Of a stretch of 64,000 nucleotides of DNA, positions 5,985-57,610 are shown in pieces. Made by a program: the position numbers and the translations under genes. Position 1 is the first letter of the stretch, and every line of letters begins with the position of its first letter. The DNA comes from a virus (lineage: Duplodnaviria > Caudoviricetes). Under the pieces are notes generated by a model. The model was not told the DNA's origin, ran no database searches, and was given only the letters and a program-made list of their open reading frames with translations. The stretch spans positions 20,370-84,369 of IMG/VR virus record IMGVR_UViG_3300006133_000004; one strand, 5' to 3'.

Positions 5985-6011
5985 CGCAGATTTTGCAGGA
6001 TACATTATGGA
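5985..6011 (+). promoter_or_regulatory. Phage motif copy 4
   Basis: cgcagattttgcaggatacattatgga. Confidence 0.75.
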
Positions 6012-6130
6012 AAGGAGAGAAAATCTGCTTAGGAAGAAATCCTGAATGGAACTGGTACAGGTAAAGTCTGGCTGAAATGCCGCGTGGCCATTCAGATGGG
6101 GTTCGAGTCCCCACAGCTCGCCCTTTCTCT
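6009..6130 (+). ncRNA. Putative structured small RNA with tRNA-like T-arm
   Basis: Closing helix GAAAGG/CCTTTC; ctgaatgg/ccattcag; ggc-TGAAAT-gcc; tgggg-TTCGAGT-cccca; no ORF. Confidence 0.6.
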
Positions 6131-6138
6131 TTGTTTTC

Positions 6139-6165
6139 CGCAGATTTTACAAATTCCTTTATGAA
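6139..6165 (+). promoter_or_regulatory. Phage motif copy 5
   Basis: cgcagattttacaaattcctttatgaa. Confidence 0.75.
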
Positions 6166-6257
6166 GAGGAATAAAAGGGAAACATTGAAAAGCCAAATTG
6201 TAAGACATGGTCGGCAATTACATTCGTAAGGATGTAATCCCAAATCATGCCCTCTTC
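6163..6257 (+). ncRNA. Putative small RNA
   Basis: Closing helix GAAGAGG/CCTCTTC; internal attacatt/gatgtaat hairpin; followed by a T run. Confidence 0.45.
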
Positions 6258-6262
6258 TTTTT

Positions 6263-6289
6263 CGCCAAATCGGCAGTGGCCTTTATGGA
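6263..6289 (+). promoter_or_regulatory. Phage motif copy 6
   Basis: cgccaaatcggcagtggcctttatgga. Confidence 0.75.
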
Positions 6290-6299
6290 GGTGATACTT

Positions 6300-6494
6300 G
6301 TGGAGACCAAGAAAATTCTTAGTACGATTGGAACGTTCGTTATTGTAGGGGCAGTATCAACAGCAGGAGCCGCATTATGGACGAACGTTTTAGATGACAA
6401 ACTTAAATTGGTTAAAGCGAAGAAAACACATTCCAAATCAGACAAAGTAATTGTTGTTGATTTCAAGAAAGTAAGGAGGGACATGAGCCGCTAA
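6300..6494 (+). CDS. Small membrane protein
   Basis: GTG start after GGAGG; hydrophobic N-terminus. Confidence 0.55.
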   Translation: METKKILSTIGTFVIVGAVSTAGAALWTNVLDDKLKLVKAKKTHSKSDKVIVVDFKKVRRDMSR

Positions 6495-6521
6495 CACAGC
6501 GGCTCTCTCTCTTTTATTTTC

Positions 6522-6548
6522 CGCATAAAACTCCACGTCCTTTATGGA
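6522..6548 (+). promoter_or_regulatory. Phage motif copy 7 (CA replaced by CC)
   Basis: cgcataaaactccacgtcctttatgga. Confidence 0.65.
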
Positions 6549-6558
6549 GGTGAAAGTA

Positions 6559-6834
6559 ATGAGACAAGTCATTCTTTATGGAATTTCTGGAGCAAGTAGG
6601 GCCTATACAGTTCTGAATTACTTCTGTATCTACGAGGAATTCGTATCGATCAGCACTATCTTAGGGGAAGCGAGGCGACTTCGGATGAGAAATCCGGATA
6701 TCGAGCACGTTTACGCAATAGATAATCGATACGGGCTCCGCCGTGATTACAGGGAGAGCATGAAACGGAATAGTATCGAGAGCCATTACATTTTCAAGGA
6801 TATTCTGGAAAGAGAAGGTATGCGAATTATTTAA
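6559..6834 (+). CDS. Hypothetical protein
   Basis: RBS GGAGG. Confidence 0.6.
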   Translation: MRQVILYGISGASRAYTVLNYFCIYEEFVSISTILGEARRLRMRNPDIEHVYAIDNRYGLRRDYRESMKRNSIESHYIFKDILEREGMRII

Positions 6835-6871
6835 CTCCGAGGAGGGTCCCGGCAGGGACTTTTCCTCTTTC

Positions 6872-6898
6872 CGCAGGAATGGCAGTTCCCTTTATGAG
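6872..6898 (+). promoter_or_regulatory. Phage motif copy 8
   Basis: cgcaggaatggcagttccctttatgag. Confidence 0.7.
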
Positions 6899-6934
6899 AG
6901 GCTTAGGCTTCATCTGTTATAAGGAGTGGAAACT

Positions 6935-7096
6935 ATGTTTACAAAATTGGAAATGGTCGGAGCTATTGCTATCAGCCTGTTCGGCGGATTCGCCATCGGC
7001 TACAGCAAGGCAAGAGAAATCTGTTTGCAAGCAATCATCACTGCTACCGGAGAGCAGAAGGAACCCGAGACGACCGAGAAGGAGGAGACGCCCTAA
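6935..7096 (+). CDS. Small single-TM protein (not in ORF track)
   Basis: MFTKLEMVGAIAISLFGGFAIGYSKAREIC...ETP*; RBS AAGGAG. Confidence 0.6.
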   Translation: MFTKLEMVGAIAISLFGGFAIGYSKAREICLQAIITATGEQKEPETTEKEETP

Positions 7097-7115
7097 ACAG
7101 GGGCTCTCCCCTTTT

Positions 7116-7142
7116 CGCACAAACCACAGCACCTTTTATGGA
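7116..7142 (+). promoter_or_regulatory. Phage motif copy 9
   Basis: cgcacaaaccacagcaccttttatgga. Confidence 0.75.
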
Positions 7143-7171
7143 AGAATCCATATTTGAAAGGAGAAGCAACA

Positions 7172-7519
7172 ATGAGCATGGAAAAGTTCAAAAGGTTTGT
7201 GGAGGACCATAAAAAGGAGCTGATTGCCACTACGGCGGTCGCTGGCGGAATCGTGCTGGTGATTCTCGGGTGCAAGCGCCACAGCGGGAAGGCGGTCAAG
7301 GCCAAAGGCATATTCAGGAGGAAAGATATTTCGATCCCGGATGGCCTCAAGGTCTGGGACACGTCATACCTCTGGGTGGAGGGAAAGTACCTGAACGCAA
7401 TCGTCAACAGCATTCCCGTGGACGACCTGGGTGAACTGGGCAAGCAATACATCAAGCATGGGCTCGCACAGCCTGGCGACATTGCAAGTGTCGTTATTGG
7501 AGTCGAGTACAACAAGTGA
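7172..7519 (+). CDS. Hypothetical membrane-anchored protein
   Basis: RBS GAAAGGAG; N-terminal TM. Confidence 0.6.
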   Translation: MSMEKFKRFVEDHKKELIATTAVAGGIVLVILGCKRHSGKAVKAKGIFRRKDISIPDGLKVWDTSYLWVEGKYLNAIVNSIPVDDLGELGKQYIKHGLAQPGDIASVVIGVEYNK

Positions 7520-7632
7520 TTCTACCAAAGGTGGAGGCCGCTAAAGCAGCGGCTTTCGCCTTTTCACCGAGGTTGTTTGTACTTCAGTGTGGTTGCTAAC
7601 TTAGAATAGCCGTTGAAAGGAGGTAGTCGTTA

Positions 7633-7884
7633 ATGAGTGAACAAGAATTTCATCCAGGCTCTGTTCCAGTAGCAGTAGTAGCCCGCGTCTATGGAAAAGA
7701 TGCGTCTTGGGTTCGAGCCGGCATTGTGTCAGGATGGCTTCCGATTGGTAAGGCTACCCGAAACGGCAAACTGGTGACCAGCATCAACGAGATAGACAGC
7801 CGGTACGGACGTATCAACTTTTACATCTCGCCAAAACTCCTCTATGAGGAAACCGGATTTTTATGGAAAGGAGAAAAGCGATAA
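7633..7884 (+). CDS. Small DNA-binding (excisionase-like) protein, paralog of 54957
   Basis: GSVPVAVVARVYGKDASWVRAGIVSGWLPIG; winged-HTH-like. Confidence 0.55.
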   Translation: MSEQEFHPGSVPVAVVARVYGKDASWVRAGIVSGWLPIGKATRNGKLVTSINEIDSRYGRINFYISPKLLYEETGFLWKGEKR

Positions 7885-7885
7885 T

Positions 7886-8305
7886 ATGCCTACAAATGTA
7901 CGACCCGAAGTATCCAAGAAGAATCCCTACTACATAGAGCGTGAGCGATACTACGAGCTGAAACACTTCTGCCGGCAGTATCCGATTTGGAAGAAAGCTC
8001 ATGCGGCCCTTGATGGGCTGAGCCGGCGACCTGCTGATTTGGAGTTGTTCAGCGAGACTGGAGAGACAAGCGATCCAACATTCCGATGCGTAGCGGCCCG
8101 TGAACGCTACTCCAGATGGATGGGTATGGTTGAGCAGTGCGCTCATGAAGCGGACCCCGAGCTCTACAAGTATCTCATGAGCTATGTTACGAAAGGAGAT
8201 TGCTACAGCGTTCTCAAAATGCGTGACCATATCCCCTGCTGCAAGGATGTGTTCTACGAGACGGCCCGTAAGTTCTTTTGGCTCCTTAACAAAGTTCGAG
8301 ACTGA
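7886..8305 (+). CDS. Putative phage transcriptional regulator (RinA/ArpU-like position and size)
   Basis: RBS GAAAGGAG; helical C-terminus FYETARKFFWLL. Confidence 0.4.
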   Translation: MPTNVRPEVSKKNPYYIERERYYELKHFCRQYPIWKKAHAALDGLSRRPADLELFSETGETSDPTFRCVAARERYSRWMGMVEQCAHEADPELYKYLMSYVTKGDCYSVLKMRDHIPCCKDVFYETARKFFWLLNKVRD

Positions 8306-8317
8306 TTTGGCATCTTC

Positions 8318-8344
8318 CGCAGAAAATACATCCACCTTTATGGA
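8318..8344 (+). promoter_or_regulatory. Phage motif copy 10
   Basis: cgcagaaaatacatccacctttatgga. Confidence 0.75.
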
Positions 8345-8373
8345 AGACCCAATATTAGAAAGGAGTTTGACTT

Positions 8374-8550
8374 ATGAACCGTCGTTTTAACTGGATGGAC
8401 AAGCCTGTCACCTGGGGAGGTTACTTTAAGCTGTGCGGCATTTGCACTGTGGTCGGAACGGCCATCGCTGCGATTGAGCTCATCGTGTTTATGGAGCCCG
8501 CCTGGTGGAAGGCTACAAAGAACTTTGTGAGAAGACTGTTCGACAGATGA
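8374..8550 (+). CDS. Small TM protein (not in ORF track)
   Basis: MNRRFNWMDKPVTWGGYFKLCGICTVV...; RBS GAAAGGAG. Confidence 0.6.
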   Translation: MNRRFNWMDKPVTWGGYFKLCGICTVVGTAIAAIELIVFMEPAWWKATKNFVRRLFDR

Positions 8551-8622
8551 ACTATCGGCATATAGGTCGGCCAAGAGGGAGGTTGTGGAAACACGGCCTC
8601 TTCTCTTTTTTATATTTTTGCT

Positions 8623-8649
8623 CGCACAATTTACAATGACCTTTATGGA
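8623..8649 (+). promoter_or_regulatory. Phage motif copy 11
   Basis: cgcacaatttacaatgacctttatgga. Confidence 0.75.
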
Positions 8650-8664
8650 AAGGAGGTTCGATTT

Positions 8665-8844
8665 ATGACTTACAAGCAAATTGAGGCCAGCAGAGAATTG
8701 CGGCTTTGGATCGGGCAGGTAATCGTACCGGCTGTCAGCGTGACGGCGGTAGTGCTTGCTAATCCTGACGTGAGAAATGCGGCTAAGCAAAAGCTGGACA
8801 GCATCAAGCAGAAGTTCCAGACCAAAAAGATCAGGGTCGTGTAG
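8665..8844 (+). CDS. Small TM protein (not in ORF track)
   Basis: MTYKQIEASRELRLWIGQVIVPAVSV...; RBS GAAAGGAGG. Confidence 0.65.
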   Translation: MTYKQIEASRELRLWIGQVIVPAVSVTAVVLANPDVRNAAKQKLDSIKQKFQTKKIRVV

Positions 8845-8959
8845 CAGCGACCCTTTCTTTTATATTTTCCGCATATAGGTGACTGTAATGTGTGGTAAAT
8901 TGGTATTCTAAAAAATTCCCGGGTGGAAAATTCTGAAAAACAATTTTAGGAGGAATCCT

Positions 8960-9178
8960 ATGGAAATCGTAATCGCACTCGTAGCTGTCCTTATCGGCTT
9001 TATCATCGGTCGAGTCCTTCCCAGAGAGCGCCCCCTTGGCGATTTGCGGGTTGACAGGTCTGACCCGACTTGTGAGCCCTATCTTTTTCTTGAACTGGGT
9101 ACGGATGTCCGTAACGTCATGAGTAAGCGGCACGTTACATTTCGCGTCAAAGTCGAAAACTTCCTGCCGCACGAATAA
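8960..9178 (+). CDS. Small membrane-anchored protein
   Basis: RBS AGGAGG; N-terminal TM. Confidence 0.6.
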   Translation: MEIVIALVAVLIGFIIGRVLPRERPLGDLRVDRSDPTCEPYLFLELGTDVRNVMSKRHVTFRVKVENFLPHE

Positions 9179-9194
9179 CACCCGCTATTATGGA
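9168..9194 (+). promoter_or_regulatory. Phage motif copy 12 (overlaps the upstream stop)
   Basis: cgcacgaataacacccgctattatgga. Confidence 0.7.
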
Positions 9195-9228
9195 GCCCAA
9201 CTCTAATATTTGAAAGGAGTAAAGCAAT

Positions 9229-9903
9229 ATGGCAGAGATCAAAAGTTTGTTGGACGGCGTGATCGAGCAGGAAATCCAAAACGTGGAGGCCCTGAGCTCT
9301 GGATCTGACGAGAAGTCGAAGGCGATCCAGAATCTCGCAACCCTGCACAAACTCCGTATCGAGGAGATCAAGGCCGAGACCGAGGCGGAAGAGAAGCGTG
9401 AACGCCGGGTTATGGACAGCGAGCAGCGTAAAGCGGAACTCGCTCTGAAAGAAAAGCAGGCTACCCAGCATCAGGCTGAGCTCTCTATCAAGGAGCGCCA
9501 GGTGGATAGTGCCGAGGCAGAACGTAAGATGAAGGACGAACAGTTCAAAGCTGAACTCGCCCTGAAGAAGCGTCAAGCCGACGGCGACACCGCTGAGCAC
9601 AAGTTGAAAGAGAAGCAGAGTGAGGCTGAGTCTCAGCATAAGGGTGCCGAGCTTGTTCTGAAGGAGCGGGAGCTTGACAGCAAGGATGCTGACCGTACCC
9701 AGGAGGGAGAGCTTCAGAAACGCCAGGCCCGGGATCAGATGGTCGACCGGTGTGTGAGAGCTGGTGTGGCGGTTGGAGAACTGGTACTGCCGTTGGTATT
9801 CTACGGCATCTGGATGAACAAGGGTTTCAAGTTCGAGGAAACCGGTTCGTTCACGTCGACCACATTCAAGAACTTGCTGAATCGCTTCAGACCCACGAAG
9901 TAA
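9229..9903 (+). CDS. Coiled-coil protein with repeated AELxxK(E/K)(K/R)(Q/E) units and a C-terminal hydrophobic segment
   Basis: RBS GAAAGGAG; four internal repeats. Confidence 0.65.
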   Translation: MAEIKSLLDGVIEQEIQNVEALSSGSDEKSKAIQNLATLHKLRIEEIKAETEAEEKRERRVMDSEQRKAELALKEKQATQHQAELSIKERQVDSAEAERKMKDEQFKAELALKKRQADGDTAEHKLKEKQSEAESQHKGAELVLKERELDSKDADRTQEGELQKRQARDQMVDRCVRAGVAVGELVLPLVFYGIWMNKGFKFEETGSFTSTTFKNLLNRFRPTK

Positions 9904-9958
9904 AGGGTAAGGCTACAAAAGCGGAGAGGGCGCGGAGATTTCGCGCTCTTTTCGTTTT

Positions 9959-9985
9959 CGCCATTTCTACAGCGCACTTTATGAG
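9959..9985 (+). promoter_or_regulatory. Phage motif copy 13
   Basis: cgccatttctacagcgcactttatgag. Confidence 0.7.
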
Positions 9986-10067
9986 GAAGAAGAGCTCTTT
10001 TACCTCGACTATTAGCCAAGAGTGGAGTATAATACTATACAACACTTCTGGACTACATCAGGAGGTA

Positions 10068-10403
10068 ATGAAAGTGCGTAAAAAGGGTAAAGAGATCATT
10101 CGGCCGGTAGGAGTTGAGATCAGGGAGTATCTCAATGACGGCTGGGGTATCTGCAACAACTGCGGAGCGCTTATGGATGAGGAAATCAGGGATAGAATTG
10201 GAGTATTCACCTGCCCGGCATGTGGCTGGGAGTGCGATGTTATGGATTATGAGTACGAGGAGGAAGACACTATGGAACTCGTACAGGATGAAAGAGGTGA
10301 CGAGTACCTGATTCCGAGAGATGATATGCCGCCCGCGGGGTGCAGAGCTTGTGGAGGTCCATATCCCTACTGCAAAGCATCTTGCAAGATGTATGACGAC
10401 TAA
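10068..10403 (+). CDS. Zinc-ribbon protein
   Basis: CNNCG...CPACG...CRACG; RBS GGAGG. Confidence 0.6.
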   Translation: MKVRKKGKEIIRPVGVEIREYLNDGWGICNNCGALMDEEIRDRIGVFTCPACGWECDVMDYEYEEEDTMELVQDERGDEYLIPRDDMPPAGCRACGGPYPYCKASCKMYDD

Positions 10404-10478
10404 GCATTATCAAAATGGAGGAGAGTCCTGGAAAAGCCGGGGCTCTTTCTCTTTATCTCTGAACTTTGTGAGGAGATT

Positions 10479-10505
10479 CGCAGATTTTGCAAATCGTATT
10501 ATGGA
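10479..10505 (+). promoter_or_regulatory. Phage motif copy 14
   Basis: cgcagattttgcaaatcgtattatgga. Confidence 0.75.
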
Positions 10506-10584
10506 AAGGAAGTATGAGAGACGCATGTTGTTGGTGAAAACCCAACCATCTACGAGGAGTGCGATCCTCCCTCGTAGCCTTTTC
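10503..10584 (+). ncRNA. Putative small RNA
   Basis: Closing helix GGAAAGG/CCTTTTC; gttgg-TGAAAAC-ccaac; ctacgagg/cctcgtag. Confidence 0.5.
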
Positions 10585-10609
10585 TTTTTATTTTCTTGGA
10601 GGGATTGTG

Positions 10610-10969
10610 ATGCGCTATCATTTCGAGAAGCCGGCTGTTTCGCTGTCGATGTATGGTCGGCGTTACATTTGCAACCATCCGGTGTATGACAGTTGCACCT
10701 TGTTCGAAATTGATGAAAAGGGTTTAGCTGTGATACAGCAGAGATTTGATCCTAAGACAAAGAGTACATCCTGGACAGAGGTAGACGCCTATTTGACCGA
10801 CGTTTTATATTTGCACCCCAAGTTCAAGGAGTTCTTTGACAGTCGGGCCAGAACTTGTACGGACGGCCTCTACCCTACCGTAACCATTCGGCAAATCATG
10901 TGGGCTTTGAAAATGAAGCCTTTGCCTAAGCAAACATGGGAAACCGTGTTCGACCGTTCGCCAATTTAG
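10610..10969 (+). CDS. Hypothetical protein
   Basis: RBS GGAGG. Confidence 0.6.
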   Translation: MRYHFEKPAVSLSMYGRRYICNHPVYDSCTLFEIDEKGLAVIQQRFDPKTKSTSWTEVDAYLTDVLYLHPKFKEFFDSRARTCTDGLYPTVTIRQIMWALKMKPLPKQTWETVFDRSPI

Positions 10970-10996
10970 CGCCGAATAGACAGCCTCTCTTATGGA
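10970..10996 (+). promoter_or_regulatory. Phage motif copy 15
   Basis: cgccgaatagacagcctctcttatgga. Confidence 0.7.
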
Positions 10997-11027
10997 GAGA
11001 TCCAAAATTTTTGAAGGGAGCTAAATT

Positions 11028-11744
11028 ATGAATCTCAAACTTTTGAAGAGCTTAGGGGCTTTGTGCAAAGAGCAGTTACCTACGATCCTATCAGGAGCGG
11101 CAGTGATTGGAGTCTTTGCAACTGGAATCTGTGCGGCTAAGGCAACTTTGAAAGCAAAGGAAGAGGTTGAGAAGCTGGAGGAGCCGACAACCTTTGAGAA
11201 GTTCAAGGTGGCGGCACCCATTTATGGGCCGTGCGTTGCCATCGGAGGAGCAACCGTTGCTTGCATTCTTGGTGCCAACCGAGTCAGTGTCAAGCGTTAT
11301 GCAGCTCTTGCTGGGACTTGCGCTATTGCAAAGACTCAACTGCAAGAGCACAAGGACAAGGTGCTTGAGATGTTTGGCAAAGAGAAAGCAGAAGCTGTTG
11401 AACAGGAGATTGCCAAAGATCAAGTAAGCAAGAAGGCGACTGGCGGACTAATCTGTGCAAGCGACGAGCTCGTGACATGCAAGGATCTTGTGACTGGGAT
11501 GGTGTTCAAGTCAAGCATGGTCCGGATACAAGCTGCGGCAAACAACGTCAACACATTGGTGCTACTGGATGGCGCTGCTGGGTTGACGGATTTCTACGAT
11601 CAGCTTGACGAAGAACACACGCCAATCATGGAAAGAGTACGATGGCATTGCGATTCACGCATTCCGACGATGCAGATAGAGTTTGGAGCGGAGATTTCGG
11701 AGCATGGACTCCCATACTTGACGTTCACTTACGAGTGTGACTGA
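11028..11744 (+). CDS. DUF6353-like membrane protein, paralog 1
   Basis: LPTILSGAAVIGV...A.KATLKA...YGP...ILGAN signature shared with 14240, 15662 and 18137. Confidence 0.6.
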   Translation: MNLKLLKSLGALCKEQLPTILSGAAVIGVFATGICAAKATLKAKEEVEKLEEPTTFEKFKVAAPIYGPCVAIGGATVACILGANRVSVKRYAALAGTCAIAKTQLQEHKDKVLEMFGKEKAEAVEQEIAKDQVSKKATGGLICASDELVTCKDLVTGMVFKSSMVRIQAAANNVNTLVLLDGAAGLTDFYDQLDEEHTPIMERVRWHCDSRIPTMQIEFGAEISEHGLPYLTFTYECD

Positions 11745-11784
11745 TGGTGACTGCTGAGGGGCGCAAAGCCTCTTAGCTTTTTAC

Positions 11785-11811
11785 CGCCAATTCCGCAACT
11801 CCTATTATGGA
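11785..11811 (+). promoter_or_regulatory. Phage motif copy 16
   Basis: cgccaattccgcaactcctattatgga. Confidence 0.75.
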
Positions 11812-11841
11812 CACCAATACCTATGAAAGGGGTTAAGGAGT

Positions 11842-12057
11842 ATGGATGAGATGAGAATTGAATCGAAGTTTACAAGAGGAATTGCGTCGAGGCTTATCAA
11901 GAAGGCCATGCGTGACAAATTGGGCTACAATGTAGATGTTCAGCTCAATAAGTTCCGCACGACCGTCATCGAGGAGAAGACGCACGTCCATCTGGACATC
12001 GAACTGGATCTCAGCAAAGAGGAACTTGACAAACTGTTAAAGAGCATTGGTCTCTGA
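11842..12057 (+). CDS. Hypothetical protein
   Basis: RBS AAGGAG. Confidence 0.65.
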   Translation: MDEMRIESKFTRGIASRLIKKAMRDKLGYNVDVQLNKFRTTVIEEKTHVHLDIELDLSKEELDKLLKSIGL

Positions 12058-12074
12058 GGCAAAAGCCGCTGTTA

Positions 12075-12101
12075 CGCAAGATATTCACACCGTATTATGG
12101 A
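12075..12101 (+). promoter_or_regulatory. Phage motif copy 17
   Basis: cgcaagatattcacaccgtattatgga. Confidence 0.75.
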
Positions 12102-12111
12102 GGTGATCGCT

Positions 12112-12298
12112 ATGAGATTTGACAGCAAAAAGGTATTCAAGTTTGCGGGAGAAGTTAGTGGTTGTGTCGTCATGGGAATTGTTTCCGCGGCAACGCAGAC
12201 GCTTTGGTACAGAATCGCAGAACCCAAGATACTTAACGCTATGGACAAAAATGAGGCAAAGCGAAAGCAGCCAATAGGTTTTAGGGGGGGGAGTCCTA
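12112..12298 (+). CDS. Small TM protein; true stop depends on the G-tract at 12284-12291
   Basis: RBS GGAGG; one extra G gives ...FRGGES* with the TAA in the hairpin, as in neighbouring cassettes. Confidence 0.45.
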
Positions 12299-12318
12299 AC
12301 GGGCTCCTCTCTCCTTTT

Positions 12319-12345
12319 CGCAGATTTTGCACATTCCTTTATGGA
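12319..12345 (+). promoter_or_regulatory. Phage motif copy 18
   Basis: cgcagattttgcacattcctttatgga. Confidence 0.75.
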
Positions 12346-12401
12346 GAGAAAGAGTTCTGCCCGATTAGCGTTGGGAGCAAGAATTGTGGCGACTTTCTCT
12401 C
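12343..12401 (+). ncRNA. Putative short hairpin RNA
   Basis: 9-bp closing helix GAGAGAAAG/CTTTCTCTC, then a T run; no ORF. Confidence 0.5.
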
Positions 12402-12410
12402 TTTTTCTTC

Positions 12411-12437
12411 CGCAGATTTTACAAATCGTATTATGGA
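12411..12437 (+). promoter_or_regulatory. Phage motif copy 19
   Basis: cgcagattttacaaatcgtattatgga. Confidence 0.75.
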
Positions 12438-12515
12438 GAGGAGACAGTTAGCTCAGTTGGTAGAGCGCAACCTGAAATGGTTGAGGTCATCGGTTCGAGT
12501 CCGATACAGCCTCTC
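12436..12515 (+). tRNA. tRNA-like RNA (Phe/GAA-like, non-canonical 6-nt loop, imperfect acceptor stem, no CCA)
   Basis: D-arm gctc-agttggta-gagc; caacc-TGAAAT-ggttg; aggtc; T-arm atcgg-TTCGAGT-ccgat; outer helix gagagg/cctctc. Confidence 0.6.
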
Positions 12516-12547
12516 TAATTTTTTCGTCGAGGAAAGGAGAAACAGGA

Positions 12548-12733
12548 ATGAGAAAAGAAATGAAGCCGATTCTCATCGGCGCATTGACCGCAGGCGTCAT
12601 CATTGCGGTTGGTGTTGGGTTTCATGCATGGACCATCAAAACTATCCCTTATTCCTATCGTCAGAATCTCTTAGATGCCGTTGACTATCTCGCCGGCAAA
12701 AATGTTTTCAACAGAGTCGATTCATTACAGTAA
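12548..12733 (+). CDS. Small TM protein
   Basis: RBS GAAAGGAG. Confidence 0.55.
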   Translation: MRKEMKPILIGALTAGVIIAVGVGFHAWTIKTIPYSYRQNLLDAVDYLAGKNVFNRVDSLQ

Positions 12734-12756
12734 AACAATGAAAGGAGAAAATCAAA

Positions 12757-13227
12757 ATGGAAATCAAAATCGTAGGAGAAGTCAAGTTCAGAAACCGCGT
12801 CCTCGCTGTCTATGGGGATCTGGATGCGCCCCTCTTCAAGGCTGCGGACGTCGCCGATCTGGTGGAGTACGGCGAGGGGAATGTCTGGAACCTTGTTCGG
12901 CTCTGTGAGGAGGACGAGCATATGCTCCTTCCGCTCGTAGTCGCTGGGCAGAAGCGGCAGGTAACTTTCATCACCGAGACCGGCCTCTACAACGTCCTGG
13001 CCCAAAGCAGAAAGCCTCTTGCCAGAGCATGGCGGCGTATCGTTCACGAGGAACTGATTGCGCTCCGGCGGTCCCAGGGTAAGAACGTCTCTGAGAAGTT
13101 CGACGAGTGGGACCATCTGGCCGACAACATCTACTTCGATGAGGAACGGGGCTGTCTGATGCGCTCTGTGACCGTTCAGGGCGGCGATGTCGAGCAGGTT
13201 CCGTATGAGCTTGATGACCGGAGGTAG
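12757..13227 (+). CDS. BRO-N domain protein (antirepressor-like)
   Basis: PLFKAADVADL...FITETGLYNVLAQSRKPLARAW. Confidence 0.8.
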   Translation: MEIKIVGEVKFRNRVLAVYGDLDAPLFKAADVADLVEYGEGNVWNLVRLCEEDEHMLLPLVVAGQKRQVTFITETGLYNVLAQSRKPLARAWRRIVHEELIALRRSQGKNVSEKFDEWDHLADNIYFDEERGCLMRSVTVQGGDVEQVPYELDDRR

Positions 13228-13229
13228 AA

Positions 13230-13730
13230 ATGAATCGACAAATCTACGTCCACTATGGATCAACAGCCTTTGACCCAACCAAAGGTTTTCCTATCAAAAA
13301 TGTTAAGGACTGGATTAAACCAGAGGGAGGACTTTGGGCGTCACAGATAAATGCGACACGAGGTTGGAAAGATTGGTGTGAAACTGAGGATTTCAGAGAA
13401 TGCACCGAAAAGCTCTCCTTCAAGTTTACCGTCAAAGATGGTTCAAATATAGCGGTCATCAAATCTACAGAAGATCTTGAGAAACTTCCTGTACAAGAAG
13501 GGTCCAGATGGAGCAAAGATACACCGTGGAGGAGATATATTATTGACTTTGAAAAGTGTATCAATCAGGGAATAGATGCAGTTGAACTCTGTATTTATGG
13601 TGATGAGTATGATTGTGAAGATTACTTTGAACTCCATCATTCGCTTTATGGTTGGGATTGTGATTCCATTGTAATACTCAATCCGAATGTGGTAATTCCC
13701 GTTTCCGATAGGGAAGGAATCATTGCATGA
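13230..13730 (+). CDS. Hypothetical protein (possible ART-like fold)
   Basis: YVHYG...KPEGGLWAS...WDCDS; AT-richer than flanks. Confidence 0.55.
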   Translation: MNRQIYVHYGSTAFDPTKGFPIKNVKDWIKPEGGLWASQINATRGWKDWCETEDFRECTEKLSFKFTVKDGSNIAVIKSTEDLEKLPVQEGSRWSKDTPWRRYIIDFEKCINQGIDAVELCIYGDEYDCEDYFELHHSLYGWDCDSIVILNPNVVIPVSDREGIIA

Positions 13731-14089
13731 AACCCGAAATCGATTATGACCACATCGTGATAGGTTCTTACATTGATGATCTTCTCAAAGATGTTGAGCG
13801 GAACTTAAAACGTACTGCACTGCGAGATCCATACTTCAAGCAATTAAGTGTTGAGAAGTTTGCGCTTGAAACATTACTCCAGGAAATCATCGAGTGTAAT
13901 GGCATTGTTACACCGATAGAGGTACTTGAACGTTTTGCCCAGGAAGCCGAACGATGCATTGTCGACAGCCGTGACCCAAACAGCAGCTATACTTTTGAAG
14001 TGTCGAGAGACACAGCGATATCCATTTTAGATGGACTCTATTTTGGATATTTGGAAGGAGAAAAACGCGGTGGATTTGAAGAAACATAG
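13727..14089 (+). CDS. Hypothetical protein, paralog of 15328 and 27114
   Basis: ALETLLQEI...TPIEVLERFA pattern. Confidence 0.55.
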   Translation: MKPEIDYDHIVIGSYIDDLLKDVERNLKRTALRDPYFKQLSVEKFALETLLQEIIECNGIVTPIEVLERFAQEAERCIVDSRDPNSSYTFEVSRDTAISILDGLYFGYLEGEKRGGFEET

Positions 14090-14239: not shown

Positions 14240-15070
14240 ATGGAAATGAAGCCTAAGCAAGGTCTGGTGAAGCAGACCCAAAAAGCCTTAAAAAAGGCGT
14301 CGCCGACAATCTTGAGCATCCTCGGAGTTGTCGGCGTGGTTACAACGGCGGTTTTGGCCGTCAAAGCTACACCCAAAGCCCTCGAACGTATTGAGGATGC
14401 TAAAGAGGCTAAAAACCTCGAAAACGGCAAAGATTTGACCCGGATGGAGACGGCAGCAGCTTGCTGGCAATGTTATATCCCTGCTGCCGCCACTGGAATC
14501 GCCACAATCGGGTGCATTATGGGCGCAAATGTCCTGAATCGGCGTCAACAGGCTTCTCTCGCCAGTGCGTATGCTTTACTTAACCGAACGTACCAGGACT
14601 ACACAAAATCGGTCAAGAACGTCTTCGGCGAAGAAGGTCATAAGCGCGTCTTGGAGGATATGGCCATTGAGCGGGTTCCCGAGAATCACACAATCTATAC
14701 CGAGGGTATGTTTGAATCTACTACCTTAGATTTCTGCATCCCTGAGGAGGAGCATCTGTTTTACGATGTTTATTCCAACCGGCAATTCGCTTCTACCATC
14801 GGAAAGGTGCTTCAGGCCGAATACCATCTGAACAGGATGTTCGCTCTGAATGGAAATGTCTCACTCAATGACTTCTATAAGTATCTCGGACTCGACCCTG
14901 TTCCTGAAGGAGACGACATTGGATGGTGGGTCGATTTCGATAATGAGGTATATTGGGTCGAGTTCAATCATGCTGTCTCTTACATTGATGACGGGCCTGA
15001 ACATCCGCAAGTCGAGTGTCTCATTATTGAGTTTCCTCAGCCGCCGGGTCTTCCGCCTCCCGAGGAGTAA
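14240..15070 (+). CDS. DUF6353-like protein, paralog 2
   Basis: SPTILSILGVVGV...AVKATPKA...CWQCYIPA...LNDFYKYLG. Confidence 0.7.
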   Translation: MEMKPKQGLVKQTQKALKKASPTILSILGVVGVVTTAVLAVKATPKALERIEDAKEAKNLENGKDLTRMETAAACWQCYIPAAATGIATIGCIMGANVLNRRQQASLASAYALLNRTYQDYTKSVKNVFGEEGHKRVLEDMAIERVPENHTIYTEGMFESTTLDFCIPEEEHLFYDVYSNRQFASTIGKVLQAEYHLNRMFALNGNVSLNDFYKYLGLDPVPEGDDIGWWVDFDNEVYWVEFNHAVSYIDDGPEHPQVECLIIEFPQPPGLPPPEE

Positions 15071-15661: not shown

Positions 15662-16426
15662 GTGAACAAGCAAACCTTTGTAAAGGCGCTTAAAAATGTT
15701 CCGAAAATTCTGAAAAAGCACAGTCCTGAGCTTTTGACAGGTATCGGCATCGCAGGGATGATCTTTACAACCATTACAGCCGTCAAAGCCACTCCCAAGG
15801 CCCTTCGCCTCGTAGACGAGCGAGAAATCAAGGAAGGAAAGCGACTGACTAATTCGGAGATCGTCAAGACAACTTGGAAGTGCTACGTTCCCGCAGCTGT
15901 GACTGGTGTGTGCTCCATTGGGTGTTTGATCGGTGCCAGCTCGGTCAACGCGAGGCGAAATGCGGCTTTAGCCACTGCCTACACCATCTCTGAGACAGCT
16001 TTCAAAGAGTACAAGGAGAAGGCGGTCGAGGTTGTTGGTGAAAAGAAGGAGCAAGCGATTCGTGATGCAGTCGCTAAGGACAAACTGGAGAAAGCCCAGG
16101 TGGCCAGCCGAGAGTTCATCATCACCGGCAAAGGAGAAACCCCCTGCTTCGACCCGCTCACCAACTCCTGTTTTAAGTCCGATATTGAGATTCTGCGGAA
16201 GGCAGAAAACATCCTGAATAAGCGGATGCGGGACGACATGGTCATAACCGTCAACGAGTTCTTACAGGAAATCGGCCTGGACTCCTGCGACGATGCCATT
16301 GGAGAGAACATGGGCTGGGATATCGACAAAGGCTACATTGACCTGGACTTCAGTTCGCAGTTGGTCGATGGCGTTCCCTACCTTGTCATCGGACATCACA
16401 ATCCGCCCCGCTACATCGGACGATAG
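15662..16426 (+). CDS. DUF6353-like protein, paralog 3
   Basis: KHSPELLTGIGIAGM...AVKATPKA...WKCYVPA. Confidence 0.72.
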   Translation: MNKQTFVKALKNVPKILKKHSPELLTGIGIAGMIFTTITAVKATPKALRLVDEREIKEGKRLTNSEIVKTTWKCYVPAAVTGVCSIGCLIGASSVNARRNAALATAYTISETAFKEYKEKAVEVVGEKKEQAIRDAVAKDKLEKAQVASREFIITGKGETPCFDPLTNSCFKSDIEILRKAENILNKRMRDDMVITVNEFLQEIGLDSCDDAIGENMGWDIDKGYIDLDFSSQLVDGVPYLVIGHHNPPRYIGR

Positions 16427-20687: not shown

Positions 20688-21242
20688 TTGACCAGAAACG
20701 AGCTTATCGATCAATATTTTGATTGGATGTATCAGCTCGTGGTCGACAACCGATATTCTAAGTCCTATCGTAAGCTGTTTGCCAGGCTGCACGATACGGA
20801 ATTCACATACACGATTCCGATGGACGGCAACCGGGCCGAAGACGGCATCGACCTTAGATATCGGTTCGGTCGCGAGTATTCCTATCCGGACGCTATGATT
20901 GCGTCATATTTGGATGACCGTCCGTGCAGCATTCTGGAGATGATGACGGCCCTTGCGATTCGTTGCGAAGAGCACATCATGGATGACCCCGACATTGGCA
21001 ACCGTACCGGACAATGGTTCTGGAGTATGTTGGTCAATCTTGGACTCGGTTCCATGTATGATGCTAAGTTTGACAGATACCGTGTTGACAGGATTCTTGA
21101 ACGACTCCTGGATCGCGAGTACGGACGTAATGGCAAGGGTGGTCTCTTTACCGTCAACAACGGCCGAGATATGCGGACAACGGAAATCTGGTATCAGATG
21201 AACTATTACCTCAGTGAGGTTATTAGAGAAGGGAACACTTAA
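20688..21242 (+). CDS. Conserved phage hypothetical protein
   Basis: TTG start after AAGGAGG. Confidence 0.65.
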   Translation: MTRNELIDQYFDWMYQLVVDNRYSKSYRKLFARLHDTEFTYTIPMDGNRAEDGIDLRYRFGREYSYPDAMIASYLDDRPCSILEMMTALAIRCEEHIMDDPDIGNRTGQWFWSMLVNLGLGSMYDAKFDRYRVDRILERLLDREYGRNGKGGLFTVNNGRDMRTTEIWYQMNYYLSEVIREGNT

Positions 21243-30248: not shown

Positions 30249-31490
30249 ATGGGGCGCATCAATCTCCGTGACTACCAGCTTGACGCTATTAAGCGGATGA
30301 AAAATGGATGCATCCTGTGTGGCGGTGTCGGAAGCGGTAAATCACGCACTTCCCTTGCATACTATTACGATTTGCAAGGCGGCGATCTTCTTGCGCCAGA
30401 TGAAGTCGCTATGAAGAACCCGCAAAACCTCTATATCATTACGACCGCTCGGAAACGGGACACCTGCGAGTGGGAGGGGGAACTGGCTCCGTTCCTCCTC
30501 TCTACTCATCCTGACTGCAACTACTACAAGAATACGGTAGTTGTGGATTCATGGAACAACATTGGAAAATACACGGATGTCAAAGATGCATTCTTTATAT
30601 TTGATGAACAGCGGGTAGTTGGTTATGGTGCTTGGACAAAAGCTTTCCTCAAGATTGCCAAGGCCAATAACTGGATTCTGCTATCCGCTACTCCCGGGGA
30701 CACTTGGCAGGACTACATTCCAGTCTTCATCGCCAATGGGTTCTATCGCAACAAGACTGATTTCGTTGACCAGCATGTCAACTATGACTGGCGAGCCAAA
30801 TACCCGAAGATCGATAGCTATCGGAACACAGGACGTCTGATCCGGCTTCGCAACAGTATTCTCGTAAACATGGACTTTAAGCGGCAGACTATTTCTCATC
30901 ATGAGGACATCCCCGTCCCGTATGATATTTCCAAGTATAAGGACATCATGCGGAAACGTTGGAATCCATGGGAAGATCGGCCAATCGAAACGGCAGCGGA
31001 GTTGTGTATGGCTCTTCGGCGAGTCGTCAATTCCGATGAAGCTCGTTCAGTTGCGACGCTTGAAATCTTGGAAGACCACCCCAAGGCCATTATCTTTTAC
31101 AGCTATGACTATGAGCTGGAGATTCTTCGCTCCCTTGGATATTCGGAGGGTACGGAGATAGCGGAGTGGAACGGTCATAAGCATCAGGAGATCCCGACAA
31201 GCGACAAATGGGTCTATCTTGTCCAGTACACGGCTGGCTGCGAAGGGTGGAACTGCATCACAACCGATACCATTATATTCTACTCCCAGCAGTATTCGTA
31301 CAAGGTGGCGACGCAAGCAGCCGGACGAATTGACCGACTCAACACCCCATACCAAGATTTGCACTACTACCATCTGAAGAGTTTCTCTGGAATCGACCTC
31401 GCTATCAGCAAAGCCCTTAAACAGAAGAAGAACTTCAACGAGGGTAAGTTTGTTGGCTGGGCCACCAAGCCGATGCCAAGAGCCGCATAA
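30249..31490 (+). CDS. SF2 (DEAD/SNF2-like) helicase
   Basis: LRDYQ, GGVGSGKS, FDEQ, LSATPG; own RBS GAAAGGAGG. Confidence 0.85.
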   Translation: MGRINLRDYQLDAIKRMKNGCILCGGVGSGKSRTSLAYYYDLQGGDLLAPDEVAMKNPQNLYIITTARKRDTCEWEGELAPFLLSTHPDCNYYKNTVVVDSWNNIGKYTDVKDAFFIFDEQRVVGYGAWTKAFLKIAKANNWILLSATPGDTWQDYIPVFIANGFYRNKTDFVDQHVNYDWRAKYPKIDSYRNTGRLIRLRNSILVNMDFKRQTISHHEDIPVPYDISKYKDIMRKRWNPWEDRPIETAAELCMALRRVVNSDEARSVATLEILEDHPKAIIFYSYDYELEILRSLGYSEGTEIAEWNGHKHQEIPTSDKWVYLVQYTAGCEGWNCITTDTIIFYSQQYSYKVATQAAGRIDRLNTPYQDLHYYHLKSFSGIDLAISKALKQKKNFNEGKFVGWATKPMPRAA

Positions 31491-31510
31491 TTTGCAAGTC
31501 CTATTACGGA
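31484..31510 (+). promoter_or_regulatory. Phage motif copy 22
   Basis: cgcataatttgcaagtcctattacgga. Confidence 0.7.
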
Positions 31511-31563
31511 GGAGATGCTACATAGCGTCTTCTTTTATATTTTATGAAAGGAGGCGAAATGCC

Positions 31564-49200: not shown

Positions 49201-49298
49201 CACATACAGAAGCTTACGGGTGGCGGTGTTCCTACACAGGGATGCCGCCGCTCTTGTTTTTATTCCAAAATTATATTTTTCCAAAGGGGTATTGCCAC

Positions 49299-52685: not shown

Positions 52686-52688
52686 TAT

Positions 52689-53747: not shown

Positions 53748-53760
53748 GGAGGGACGTAAC

Positions 53761-54228: not shown

Positions 54229-54267
54229 ATACCACACAATTTACTAATTGAAAAAGGAGTTGTAGAC

Positions 54268-54839: not shown

Positions 54840-54956
54840 TGGTTTATATCAGAGCCCTTAACGTCCTTCCCCACAAGCATCATATACGACCTGTTACTAC
54901 CAAAAATAGTGGCAGGTCATTTTTATTGAATTGTCATAGAGAGGAGGTAAATAAAT

Positions 54957-55238
54957 TTGGATGAGCAATTCTCAATCGGTTCAGTTCCAGTATCTGTAGC
55001 TGCTAAAGTGTACGGAAGAGATGCATCTTGGATTAGGGCCGGTATTGTGGTAGGATGGTTACCTATTGGACGAGCTACCCGAGACGGTAAGCTTGTAACC
55101 ACTATTGAAGAGATGGACTCGAAGTACGGACGTATCAACTATTATATTTCTCCCAAGCGGCTCTATGAAGATACCGGCTATGTGTGGAAGGGGGAGAAAA
55201 CAGTGAATGAGCTCGATCAGTGCAGTGCTTCAGCGTGA
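54957..55238 (+). CDS. Small DNA-binding (excisionase-like) protein, paralog of 7633
   Basis: GSVPVSVAAKVYGRDASWIRAGIVVGWLPIG. Confidence 0.55.
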   Translation: MDEQFSIGSVPVSVAAKVYGRDASWIRAGIVVGWLPIGRATRDGKLVTTIEEMDSKYGRINYYISPKRLYEDTGYVWKGEKTVNELDQCSASA

Positions 55239-55251
55239 AGCCGACTGAGTC

Positions 55252-55560
55252 TAACTTAGAATAGAAAATCTATCTAACCTAAGATAGAATTCTGCCCGTT
55301 TGCCCACTTTTATTTTCAGAATGGGTGGCTTTGAGCGGTTGGGGGAGGACTGATACGGTCATTTTGCCCGAAAAAAGCGGGTTTTTGCCCACTTTTCAAA
55401 ACAAAAGTGTCCATGTACTTAGACGTAGTTAGCAGTAGTTAGCGGTTTTTGAGTATCAGAACGAGAGTTTTGGCCAAAAGCCCACTTTTACTTTACACTT
55501 AAGCACGAAAGAAAAAAGTAAGAAATATATATAAGTGGCCGGAAAAAGTGGGCAAGTGGG
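55252..55560. repeat. Non-coding region with GCCCACTTT iterons and TAACTTAGAATAG boxes
   Basis: gcccacttt at 55302, 55387 and 55480; inverted aaaagtgggc at 55544; boxes at 55252 and 55275. Confidence 0.7.
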
Positions 55561-55630
55561 TAAAAGGCGATTCTTCAGTAAAATCTTTGCCTGCGTGATG
55601 ATATTGCCTCTTTTCTTTCTTTAGAAGGTG

Positions 55631-55808
55631 TGGTATACTGTCCTTGCGACACAATCAGATAATCGCCCGATTAAGTAGGGGATAACACGGCAAATAGTGT
55701 TATCTCTCTTTACTCGTACCCTACATAATTGGGCAATGAGATTGTGTCGCAACAATGGGGAGAACACTTTTGCAGGTGCGTCTCTCCATTGAGGCGCACC
55801 TTTTTTTT
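55631..55808 (+). promoter_or_regulatory. Extended -10 promoter, structured leader and terminator/antiterminator
   Basis: TGGTATACT; 13-bp ttgcgacacaatc/gattgtgtcgcaa; terminator ggtgcgtctc/gaggcgcacc followed by T8. Confidence 0.6.
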
Positions 55809-55835
55809 ATTGATCTGAGGTGAGGAGGGCTGAAT

Positions 55836-56870
55836 ATGGCTGAGCAGAACTGGGGGATTGTTCCATGCGATGTAGCGATGGATGTTTCCCCTGCAAATGG
55901 TTTCACCAAGTTGGAACTTAATTCCACACAGAAGATTCAGGTCGGGGCTCTTTTGCAGCAACTGCCGTCTGTAGCAGTTACTAATAAAATGTCACAACTA
56001 TACACCGTTACGTTCCCAGAAGGAATATCTGGGAAACTGATGGAATTAAAACAGCGTGAAGGATTTACCACCTCAATTATTGGTGAAGATGGAAAAATCG
56101 CCGCATCGGCTGCGCTAAACCCGGTGGACCATGTCCAAGTTTTGGCCATGGGATGCTTTACCGCCATGTCAATCGCATCCAGCCAATACTTTCTCAAGAA
56201 GATCAATGACGAATTGAAAGTGATGCGGATGACCATCGATAAGATCCTTGAATTTCTTTATGGAGATAAGAAGGCAGAGTTGATGGCCGAGATCAACTTT
56301 GTCAGATATGCCTATGAAAATTATATTTTCATTATGAGGTCTGATGCGCAGCGGGCTGCAACAATCGCAAGTTTGCAGAGTGCTCGTAAGGTTGCGATCA
56401 AAGACATTGAATTTTACATAGCCGATTTGGAGTCCACCGTTAAAGGAAAAGAGGGAAAAGATATTTCGAGCCTTGTAGAAAAAGAATTCCAGCTGAAAGA
56501 AAGTCTTGAGGTCGCCATGCAACTTTATGGCGTAAGTAGTTTACTGGAAGTTTACTACGCCCAGAATTATGACCGAGGTTATCTTGAATATGTAGAAAGG
56601 GACATTTCGGTTTACATCGATAAATGTGAAAAACGGATGTTGGGTAGTTTTTCGTCCCTTCGTACCCTTGTTGACAATGCTAAGGAAATGCCGTTTAAGA
56701 AAATAGCGAAGGCTGATATTTTAGATCGCATCGATGGGCTTGTTGAATCGCTTGGTCGAGGTGAAGAATCTGACATGAGAAAATCGTTGCGGGCTGGTCT
56801 AAATGCAGCAACTCAAAAGGCTGATTATTATATGACCGTTGATGGAGTTATTTATTTGAAGACAGCGTGA
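55836..56870 (+). CDS. Moron: helical/coiled-coil hypothetical protein
   Basis: AT-richer; RBS GAGGAGG. Confidence 0.65.
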   Translation: MAEQNWGIVPCDVAMDVSPANGFTKLELNSTQKIQVGALLQQLPSVAVTNKMSQLYTVTFPEGISGKLMELKQREGFTTSIIGEDGKIAASAALNPVDHVQVLAMGCFTAMSIASSQYFLKKINDELKVMRMTIDKILEFLYGDKKAELMAEINFVRYAYENYIFIMRSDAQRAATIASLQSARKVAIKDIEFYIADLESTVKGKEGKDISSLVEKEFQLKESLEVAMQLYGVSSLLEVYYAQNYDRGYLEYVERDISVYIDKCEKRMLGSFSSLRTLVDNAKEMPFKKIAKADILDRIDGLVESLGRGEESDMRKSLRAGLNAATQKADYYMTVDGVIYLKTA

Positions 56871-56879
56871 TTGGAGTAG

Positions 56880-57449
56880 ATGATAATGAGCTCTAAGAAA
56901 ACGAATGGTGGAAACAATAAAAAATCTATCGCTCCTACTGTGTTGTCTGCCTTAACAATAGCCCCAGCCATAATTACAGCTGTTGAAGAATTGATAGATA
57001 AGCTTCCAGATATTCCGAGTAAAGTTGGTGTTCCACAATTATATGGCCTCGGTTTTCCGTTGAAACTGGATCAGGCTATTACAAGATTGACCAAGGTAGG
57101 CCTGACAGTTATGCCAAGTGAACTGAGTATTGGAGAAGCCGATCCAAAATATAGAAACTGCGTTGACTCCGAGGTGGTTGATTCAGATCCAAAGCCAAAA
57201 CAGAAGGTTGCTGCTGGATATCCCGTAATAATTAGGTATGTTACTCAGGAAGTGATTGACGAAAGTAAGCGGCTGTTTGAGGAATTGGAGAGACAGAAAG
57301 CAGAGGCAAACCGCATAAAAAATGAGAAACGTGAACATCAGAAAGCGCAGGCACAAAGGACTATCGCAGATGCTGCTATCCAAGTTAAGGGTTTACCTGA
57401 AAAAATATTACACTATAATAAGAAAGGAACCAAATCTAAAGCTCCTTAA
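56880..57449 (+). CDS. Moron: PASTA-like domain protein
   Basis: VPQLYG...AITRLTKVGL...VVDSDPKP...V..G..V.IRY. Confidence 0.5.
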   Translation: MIMSSKKTNGGNNKKSIAPTVLSALTIAPAIITAVEELIDKLPDIPSKVGVPQLYGLGFPLKLDQAITRLTKVGLTVMPSELSIGEADPKYRNCVDSEVVDSDPKPKQKVAAGYPVIIRYVTQEVIDESKRLFEELERQKAEANRIKNEKREHQKAQAQRTIADAAIQVKGLPEKILHYNKKGTKSKAP

Positions 57450-57501
57450 CAAAATTATATTTTTGGAAAAGAGACGCCTTAATCAGCGTCTCTTTTCTTT
57501 T

Positions 57502-57528
57502 CGCCGAAAAAACAGACTCTTTTATGGA
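57502..57528 (+). promoter_or_regulatory. Phage motif copy 24
   Basis: cgccgaaaaaacagactcttttatgga. Confidence 0.75.
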
Positions 57529-57610
57529 GAGAAGAGATGTGCTCTAAAAATATTCCCCGTGGTTACGGAATACGGAGTTGTGTGGCAGCAATAAATATCA
57601 CTTCTCTCTT
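57526..57610 (+). ncRNA. Putative small RNA or structured leader
   Basis: Closing helix GAGAGAAG/CTTCTCTC; internal tattcc/ggaata. Confidence 0.45.

Follow-up and report, generated by a model that had tools for sequence, protein, structure and literature searches.

Phage transfer RNA (tRNA) genes are usually read as codon-usage helpers or as replacements for cleaved host tRNAs, and phage tRNAs with altered anticodon loops escape host anticodon nucleases. RNAs that have the shape of a tRNA without decoding lie at transcript ends in murine gammaherpesvirus 68, as the t-elements of plant mitochondria and as the mascRNA of MALAT1, and these eukaryotic systems depend on RNase P together with RNase Z. 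The subject here is a 64,000-nucleotide stretch of DNA (the window; bases 20370-84369 of the 84,369-bp IMG/VR virus record IMGVR_UViG_3300006133_000004, which is rated complete) from a tailed phage whose habitat, according to public sequencing runs, is the mouse gut and whose genome is assigned to the lineage of Faecalibacterium phage FP_oengus. Within the window six segments, here called units and named after their first base, each begin at a copy of a recurrent promoter motif and are closed by a helix between their two ends. Sequence comparison supports units 12435 and 6009 as tRNA-derived, conserved RNA genes, and with RNA genes supported for these two units the case can be described as a variant of viral tRNA mimicry not known before.

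Like a tRNA, the RNA of unit 12435 and its relatives folds into a cloverleaf with a textbook D-arm, T-arm and elbow and scores above the Rfam threshold for tRNA (RF00005), and as in the case of phage tRNAs the genome also carries an RNA ligase-like gene. Unlike a tRNA, it has loops of 4-8 nt in the anticodon position that lack the U33/R37 arrangement, no CCA, a mismatched middle of the acceptor stem and a 4-bp paired extension that is predicted to begin at the first base of the transcript. It also differs from phage tRNAs in being present in one copy per genome and fused to a phage-specific promoter. With the gammaherpesvirus 68 RNAs, the t-elements and mascRNA it shares a tRNA shape without decoding use and a position at a transcript end, but two hosts lack RNase Z and the element stands at the 5' end, behind what appears to be a phage-polymerase promoter. 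Y RNAs of the YrlA type, those of phages included, are non-decoding and combine an end-closed stem with a tRNA-like module (Chen et al. 2014, PMC4201824); the same combination is seen here, except that the acceptor stem serves as the closed stem, in place of a separate Ro-binding stem. Finally, the late operon of SPbeta that is transcribed by YonO starts with a non-coding RNA (Forrest et al. 2017, PMC5467207). As there, a transcript of a single-chain two-barrel polymerase would begin here with a structured non-coding RNA, whereas the SPbeta leader does not match the tRNA-shaped model in sequence or structure and stands alone, with no array of cassettes.

A tRNA-shaped RNA and its expanded relative

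Unit 12435 (12435..12524, plus strand) contains an Rfam tRNA match at 12442-12513 and ends in a T-run at 12519-12524. It scores 47.5 bits with RF00005 against a threshold of 29 (relatives 36-58 bits) and 83.8 bits with R1, the model of the tRNA-shaped RNA. The anticodon arm, CAACC-UGAAAU-GGUUG, comprises a 5-bp stem and a 6-nt loop, and the terminal helix is lengthened by GGAGAGG/CCUCUCU. ARAGORN is unable to assign an anticodon and reports 'gaaa'; in three relatives it labels the RNA tRNA-Phe(AAA) or tRNA-Val(AAC), so automatic annotation may mislabel RNAs of this shape. An Rfam search had been suggested as a check in the sequence-only reading from which the analysis set out, and it returned the tRNA match for unit 12435 and nothing for the other RNA families: gathering-threshold and permissive scans of the window and five relatives gave only tRNA, plus the RT-18 RNA described below.

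A first alignment of 24 sequences supported a cloverleaf with an 11-bp terminal helix, and the model-based census comprises 35 distinct tRNA-shaped sequences. Over these 35 sequences 93.4% of the cells are paired, against 43-52% when the partners are slid, and changes on both sides occur in 21 of 25 pairs, including 10 of the 11 pairs of the terminal helix. The D and T helices are 98-99% paired, the elbow is nearly invariant, and leader and trailer remain paired for 4 further bp. The 'anticodon' loops, by contrast, range from 4 to 8 nt and are unrelated between subgroups, and 8-10 of the 35 sequences have mismatches at acceptor positions 3:70 to 5:68.

Prevalence was assessed in a sample independent of the RNA, namely 45 records picked via the core gene at 10610. 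The model matches 40 of these 45 genomes, with exactly one copy in 38 of the 40 carriers, and among the 26 genomes with a completeness of 90% or more it matches 23; in compared records the RNA follows the core gene at a distance of 0.3-1.5 kb. A non-decoding RNA that is kept nearly always as a single copy in so many relatives probably does something important, and such retention on a phage promoter, over a large clade of phages of gut Oscillospiraceae, suggests that it works outside translation. A role as phage attachment site (attP) was considered and rejected, the unit being 8 kb from the integrase and present inside prophages. In the window the RNA is followed directly by an open reading frame (ORF) of 61 aa (12548..12733, plus strand) that has a ribosome-binding site (RBS) and no promoter of its own. 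The description of unit 12435 as a non-coding RNA gene is thus borne out, and its tRNA-derived, clade-wide nature goes beyond what had originally been claimed.

In the cultured phage FP_oengus (NC_047916) the motif is found 10 times within 8 kb. One copy is immediately followed by an unannotated tRNA-shaped RNA with a score of 58 bits and the loop UUGAUU (L232:2745-2829, approximately 2932-3016 of NC_047916), and a second closed unit without an ORF is found at L232:2327-2447 (approximately 2514-2634). Both are placed behind a motif copy in two 'empty' intergenic gaps of about 255 nt, and the literature found on FP_oengus and tRNA contains no description of the tRNA-shaped RNA. Together with lysogenic isolates this cultured phage allows direct tests.

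Unit 6009 (6009..6128, plus strand, T-run 6129-6138) is an expanded tRNA-shaped RNA that comprises a closing helix, an 8-bp long arm around two hairpins, one of them GGC-UGAAAU-GCC, and the T-arm GGGG-UUCGAGU-CCCC. The UGAAAU loop of this hairpin is identical to that of unit 12435. A pattern search independent of the promoter recovered six diverged homologues, each of them behind a variant of the motif, and a second pattern search recovered the identical set. The resulting family of 7 sequences has 28 pairs, in which 94.9% of the cells are paired compared with 35-53% for slid partners; both sides have changed in 16 of the pairs, the 8-bp arm is never broken and GCUGAAAUGC is invariant. Hairpins with a UGAAA loop number 6 on the plus strand of the window against 2.0 expected, and three of them are inside units 6009, 10503 and 12435. 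Covariation had been named as a test of the non-coding RNAs: compensatory changes are present in diverged homologues of units 12435 and 6009, while the other four units offer no diverged homologues to compare. The wider claim that six motif copies drive non-coding RNAs instead of ORFs is accordingly upheld as RNA genes for these two units, and the remaining four are still unproven.

A proposed promoter-RNA-terminator cassette

The motif CGC-N8-CA-N7-TT[AG][TC]G[AG][AG] is real, with 26 rigid copies in the window, every one on the plus strand. A sub-variant, CGCAGATTTTRCA, is common to five of the six RNA units and is present in no ORF-driving copy of the window (hypergeometric P of about 9e-5, calculated by hand). 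It takes the form CGCAGATTTTGCA in the plus-strand copies at 5985..6011, 10479..10505 and 12319..12345, which would drive units 6009, 10503 and 12343, and CGCAGATTTTACA in those at 6139..6165 and 12411..12437, ahead of units 6163 and 12435. The sub-variant was found in 78 other viral loci, in many of which it sits directly on a homologue of the tRNA-shaped RNA that starts 4 nt past the GG, and in relatives it also stands directly on at least two other closed RNA families. The sixth promoter, CGCCGAAAAAACA at 57502..57528 (plus strand, unit 57526), is a near-duplicate of the copy at 59519. The latter opens a stretch (59519..59583, plus strand) in which the sister promoter is followed by a hairpin anchored at +1, a U-run, and an RBS with its ORF; it has no cargo and shows the same design without an inserted RNA. 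A further copy lies in the leader of ORF 10068 (9983-10070), where the promoter copy and a +1 hairpin are followed by a host-type sigma-70 promoter (CTCGACT...TATAAT here, TTGACT-N18-TATAAT in the relative L037), so that ORF 10068 may be read by the host polymerase as well as by that of the phage.

The six closing helices are located exactly where the sequence-only reading had placed them: GAAAGG 6010/CCTTTC 6122 in unit 6009, GAAGAGG 6163/CCTCTTC 6251 in unit 6163, GGAAAGG 10503/CCTTTTC 10578 in unit 10503, GAGAGAAAG 12344/CTTTCTCTC 12393 in unit 12343, GAGAGG 12436/CCTCTC 12510 in unit 12435 and GAGAGAAG 57527/CTTCTCTC 57601 in unit 57526. All start within 1 nt of the promoter GG, and in 6/6 units a T-rich run begins 0-3 nt behind the 3' arm. 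A closing helix anchored at +1 together with a T-run is seen in 6 of 25 promoter units compared with 18 of 487 sites elsewhere that have the same 6-mer, a count that takes in the hairpin at 59543 and leaves out unit 6163 by the T-count rule. The argument that six independent helices confirm the start site does not hold, however. The starts are all GGARAG-like and the tails all CUYUCU-like, and when the first 10 nt of other promoters are swapped in, units are still closed in 16, 22, 20, 10 and 22 of 24 cases, which indicates one design reused and not six separate confirmations.

Intrinsic terminators and 5' stabiliser hairpins of Firmicutes consist of a stem followed by a U-run, and a helix at the first base would protect the 5' end. 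The phage units resemble these in both respects, 6/6 having a stem directly followed by a U-run and a helix that starts at the presumed first transcribed base, but differ in that the stem encloses 40-100 nt of structured cargo and that its 5' arm is the initially transcribed sequence of the promoter. The outer helix and U-run of model R1 also match ORF terminators throughout the window, including +1 hairpins at 31508 and 26253. At 31484..31543 (plus strand) a promoter copy is followed by a plain terminator-like hairpin at +1, from which it appears that the closing helix is the ordinary terminator stem of the phage.

The statement that no RBS and ORF lie downstream is correct for units 6009, 6163 and 12343, where the next element is another promoter, and fails for units 10503, 12435 and 57526, behind which an RBS and ORF follow at 10610, 12548 and 57639 with no new promoter between. 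A coding reading of the units themselves was rejected as unsupported by PHROG comparison of the overlapping ORFs: ORF 5878-6243 (minus strand) and ORF 6207-6494 have no PHROG match, and the homology of ORF 57537 begins only at about residue 42. A blastn match of 6549-6607 to tRNA genes of unrelated phages was likewise set aside as chance, since it lies inside coding sequence and is not tRNA-like.

It is proposed, as the probable reading of the locus, that the six segments are the RNA cargo of a modular cassette of the clade and that units 12435 and 6009 act in trans as non-decoding tRNA mimics. The promoter of about 27 bp, presumably recognised by the single-chain two-barrel RNA polymerase of the phage itself, would be fused to the 5' arm of a standard terminator stem (GGAGAGG...CCUCUCU plus U-run), with the structured RNA placed in the loop of that stem. 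Transcription may start at the GG, and the closing helix would bury the 5' end and work as a leaky intrinsic terminator, so that a small RNA of defined size would be made, with some transcripts continuing into the following genes. The mimics themselves may engage a factor that reads the elbow and the acceptor/T-arm, for which host tRNA machinery, a tRNA-directed defence protein or a phage protein are candidates. Such a layout constitutes a concrete, testable map of transcription units for the poorly known single-chain two-barrel RNA polymerases.

Several points weigh against this proposal. Transcription, the GG start, termination and the discrete RNA sizes are predictions from the sequence, the public runs that matched it having yielded only Logan contigs; the closing helices are generic, and no partner protein of the tRNA-shaped RNA was identified. 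In the acceptor region of the window copy of this RNA there are two mismatches and an insertion of 3 nt. The MFE (minimum free energy) z-scores of the units are modest (-1.6 to -3.6), those of the units without diverged homologues included, and other RNA cassettes from relatives have fold scores no better than shuffles. For units 6163, 10503, 12343 and 57526 blastn-short and nhmmer searches of 1.05 Mb of related loci found only near-identical copies, and IMG/VR searches likewise found no diverged homologues. A role in cis is also possible, because three units directly precede ORFs without a promoter.

Remnants, leaders or tRNA mimics

The alternative that survives best concerns units 6163, 12343 and 57526, and perhaps 10503, which with close to an even chance are functionless by-products, that is cassette remnants or filler, transcribed or not, arising from recombination between repeated promoters and terminator arms. 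Their missing homologues speak for this, as does their generic closing helix, although the former may only reflect shallow sampling. Unit 6163 (6163..6257, plus strand; GAAGAGG/CCUCUUC, inner hairpin UUACAUUCGUAAGGAUGUAA, then T-run; z -2.8) has as its sole match a near-identical copy in L057. Neither the 60-nt unit 12343 (12343..12402, plus strand; GGAGAGAAAG/CUUUCUCUCU, then T-run; z -2.4) nor unit 57526 (57526..57609, plus strand; GGAGAGAAG/CUUCUCUCU, T-run, then RBS AAGGAGG and ORF 57639; z -3.6) has homologues in the searches made, and ORF 57639 has no relatives among viral contigs. The z-scores of -2.4 to -3.6 argue against mere filler, and so does the use of the RNA-specific promoter sub-variant by three of the four units; the near-duplicate promoters at 57502 and 59519, on the other hand, carry different cargo.

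Unit 10503 (10503..10584, plus strand; hairpin GUUGG-UGAAAAC-CCAAC, then T-run) is only perhaps to be counted with these three. The core gene behind it (10610..10969, plus strand; phrog_17256, 119 aa), which is the synteny anchor of the clade, lies directly after the upstream terminator in 78 of 80 relatives. The cassette is missing there, and the unit is a recent insertion of a whole promoter-RNA-terminator cassette that left gene 10610 without a promoter of its own. Such recent arrival favours a by-product, whereas the recurring UGAAA-loop hairpin and the identical sequence of the unit in three other records do not. A cloverleaf fold of unit 10503 was rejected as 3.5 kcal/mol worse than the MFE structure, and kinship with the L010_3894 RNA was dropped because short common motifs gave an unconvincing alignment.

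Recombination at the promoters, which the by-product explanation invokes, is evident from other mouse-gut contigs that join exactly at promoter copies (5984 to 12411; 6262 to 10479). At 12345, 12348 and 12435, the slot of unit 12343 among them, the RNA cassettes of these contigs differ from those of the window. It follows that the repeated promoter serves as a recombination site for the exchange of cassettes between strains, and non-coding RNAs are shuffled among phage strains in the manner of accessory protein genes. Relatives hold further closed RNA families without an Rfam match. One of these, AUGGAUAGAUGC-GGUGGAAAUCC...ACGAAG...GGCAACGCAA...CUGAAGUC, is sometimes fused behind a tRNA-shaped RNA; its loci are L007:50-190, L009:3804-3915, L015:1893-2035, L016:6561-6725 and L209 (minus strand). 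The window itself contains another tRNA-shaped element at 41962-42123. Its D-arm is of the Leu/Ser type, its terminal stem has 9 bp, and its anticodon arm is enlarged by an insert of about 90 nt that includes a second T-loop (TCGGTTCGATTCCGA); the element has neither an ARAGORN call nor an upstream promoter motif.

It is unlikely that the units are solely cis-acting 5' leaders, either attenuators or 5'-end stabilisers for the genes behind them, with no function in trans. An RBS and ORF without their own promoter do follow units 10503, 12435 and 57526, the same arrangement is found behind the tRNA-shaped RNA in 30 of the 35 family members, plain +1 hairpins with U-runs precede the ORFs at 31508 and 59543, and the spacer of 2-3 nt between helix and U-run suggests leaky termination. 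However, the tRNA-shaped RNA is kept nearly always in single copy while the ORFs behind it fall into 15 unrelated clusters, which argues against a leader for a single gene and for a trans-acting RNA. Nor does a riboswitch or attenuator find support, there being no conserved downstream gene and no Rfam match. The D-arm, T-arm and elbow are conserved though a hairpin would suffice for a leader, three units are followed by a promoter in place of an ORF, and gene 10610 manages without the cassette in nearly all relatives.

A role of unit 12435 as a working tRNA, whether a tRNA-Phe variant or a four-base (GAAA) frameshift suppressor that reads UUUC, is highly improbable. The Rfam score, the 'gaaa' anticodon reported by ARAGORN and the 8-nt loop (CUGAAAUA) needed in some relatives, with C32 and U33 in place, would fit such a role. 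No family member, however, has a 7-nt anticodon loop with U33 and purine 37, the window copy having the 6-nt UGAAAU, and the loops across the family are unrelated (for example CAUC, AAACCC and UUGAUU). The same loop is present in the 6009 RNA, which is incapable of decoding. A fully paired 7-bp acceptor with free 5' and 3' ends is found neither in the window copy nor in the family, given the acceptor mismatches described above and the 5' leader and 3' trailer that stay paired. All 7 compared host tRNA genes encode CCA and have 7-nt loops, both of which are missing from the phage RNA. For RNase Z, the sole maturation route that was checked, neither of two host genomes (G001 and G002) has a match above the family cut-off, so in these hosts the usual route for precursors that lack CCA is missing. 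Descent from one host tRNA was rejected as well, as unit 12435 is only 63-69% identical to each one compared and therefore is no copy of any of them. ARAGORN reports no transfer-messenger RNA (tmRNA), and the Rfam tmRNA match, with 10.7 bits, is confined to 15 nt of the T-loop.

The weakest explanation, in which the tRNA-shaped RNAs would resemble Y RNAs of the YrlA type and have a Ro60/Rsr protein as their partner, has in its favour the stem closed by both ends next to a tRNA-like module and the 6-nt 'anticodon' loop that Yrn1 of Deinococcus radiodurans also has (PMC4201824), but neither the phage nor hosts G001 and G002 have TROVE/Ro60 (PF05731), for which control genomes matched, and the Rfam scan of positions 4000-14000 at E up to 5 lists no Y-RNA family.

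The pattern of constraint in the family of unit 12435, with elbow, T-arm and outer helix conserved and the loop free to vary, fits recognition by a reader of tRNA shape and argues for tRNA mimicry over decoding. Decoy, sponge and anti-defence roles, which the sequence-only reading had put forward for such RNAs, may all be envisaged; a decoy aimed at a single anticodon nuclease is made less likely by the variable 'anticodon' loop. A bolder idea, which is offered tentatively and is rather doubtful, is that the tRNA-shaped RNA represents a new class of effector RNA: a non-decoding mimic that would be made as soon as the phage polymerase begins to transcribe and would dock, by way of its conserved elbow and closed acceptor, on a tRNA-reading factor of host or phage, with the freely evolving loop setting its specificity in an arms race and the cassettes serving, through recombination, to swap RNA weapons between strains.

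Phage lineage, hosts and neighbouring genes

Members of the FP_oengus lineage encode a single-chain two-barrel RNA polymerase (Koert et al. 2021), and one protein of the window, not placed here by position, matches phrog_4291 with E = 0. Prophage copies indicate Oscillospiraceae-type Clostridia as hosts. Among the carriers are Muriventricola aceti H5_61, an isolate, and Clostridiales bacterium CCNA10, whose genome is complete; the host genomes checked above are CCNA10 (G001) and M. aceti (G002).

The RNA ligase-like gene is situated at 21244-21813 and has a full-length match to phrog_14301 'RNA ligase' and a partial match to Pfam RLIG1. The phage carries several counter-defence genes; an ADP-ribosylglycohydrolase is encoded at 33442-34227, and Tad8 and NADAR domains are also present in the window at positions not given here. 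A conflict with the host at the level of RNA would be compatible with the ligase-like and counter-defence genes, which do not prove it.

The tRNA-shaped RNA lies among four paralogues of DUF6353, a family without known function, which are located at 11028-11744, 14240-15070, 15662-16426 and 18137-19099. The window has a fifth copy, and the family is also found in FP_oengus. The RT-18 RNA (RF03021, 65 bits) is located at L057:9151-9257 (minus strand), in the part of the phage upstream of the window start, and judged by its position it should be near the reverse transcriptase of a diversity-generating retroelement.

In SPbeta, the 1.7-kb unannotated gap between yonN and yonK, where the YonO late operon starts, contains a DUF3800-VIII RNA with 47.5 bits, above threshold, and a skipping-rope-like RNA with 29.6 bits, below threshold; the RNAs of this gap lie at L233:19409-19474 and 20719-20828, both on the minus strand.

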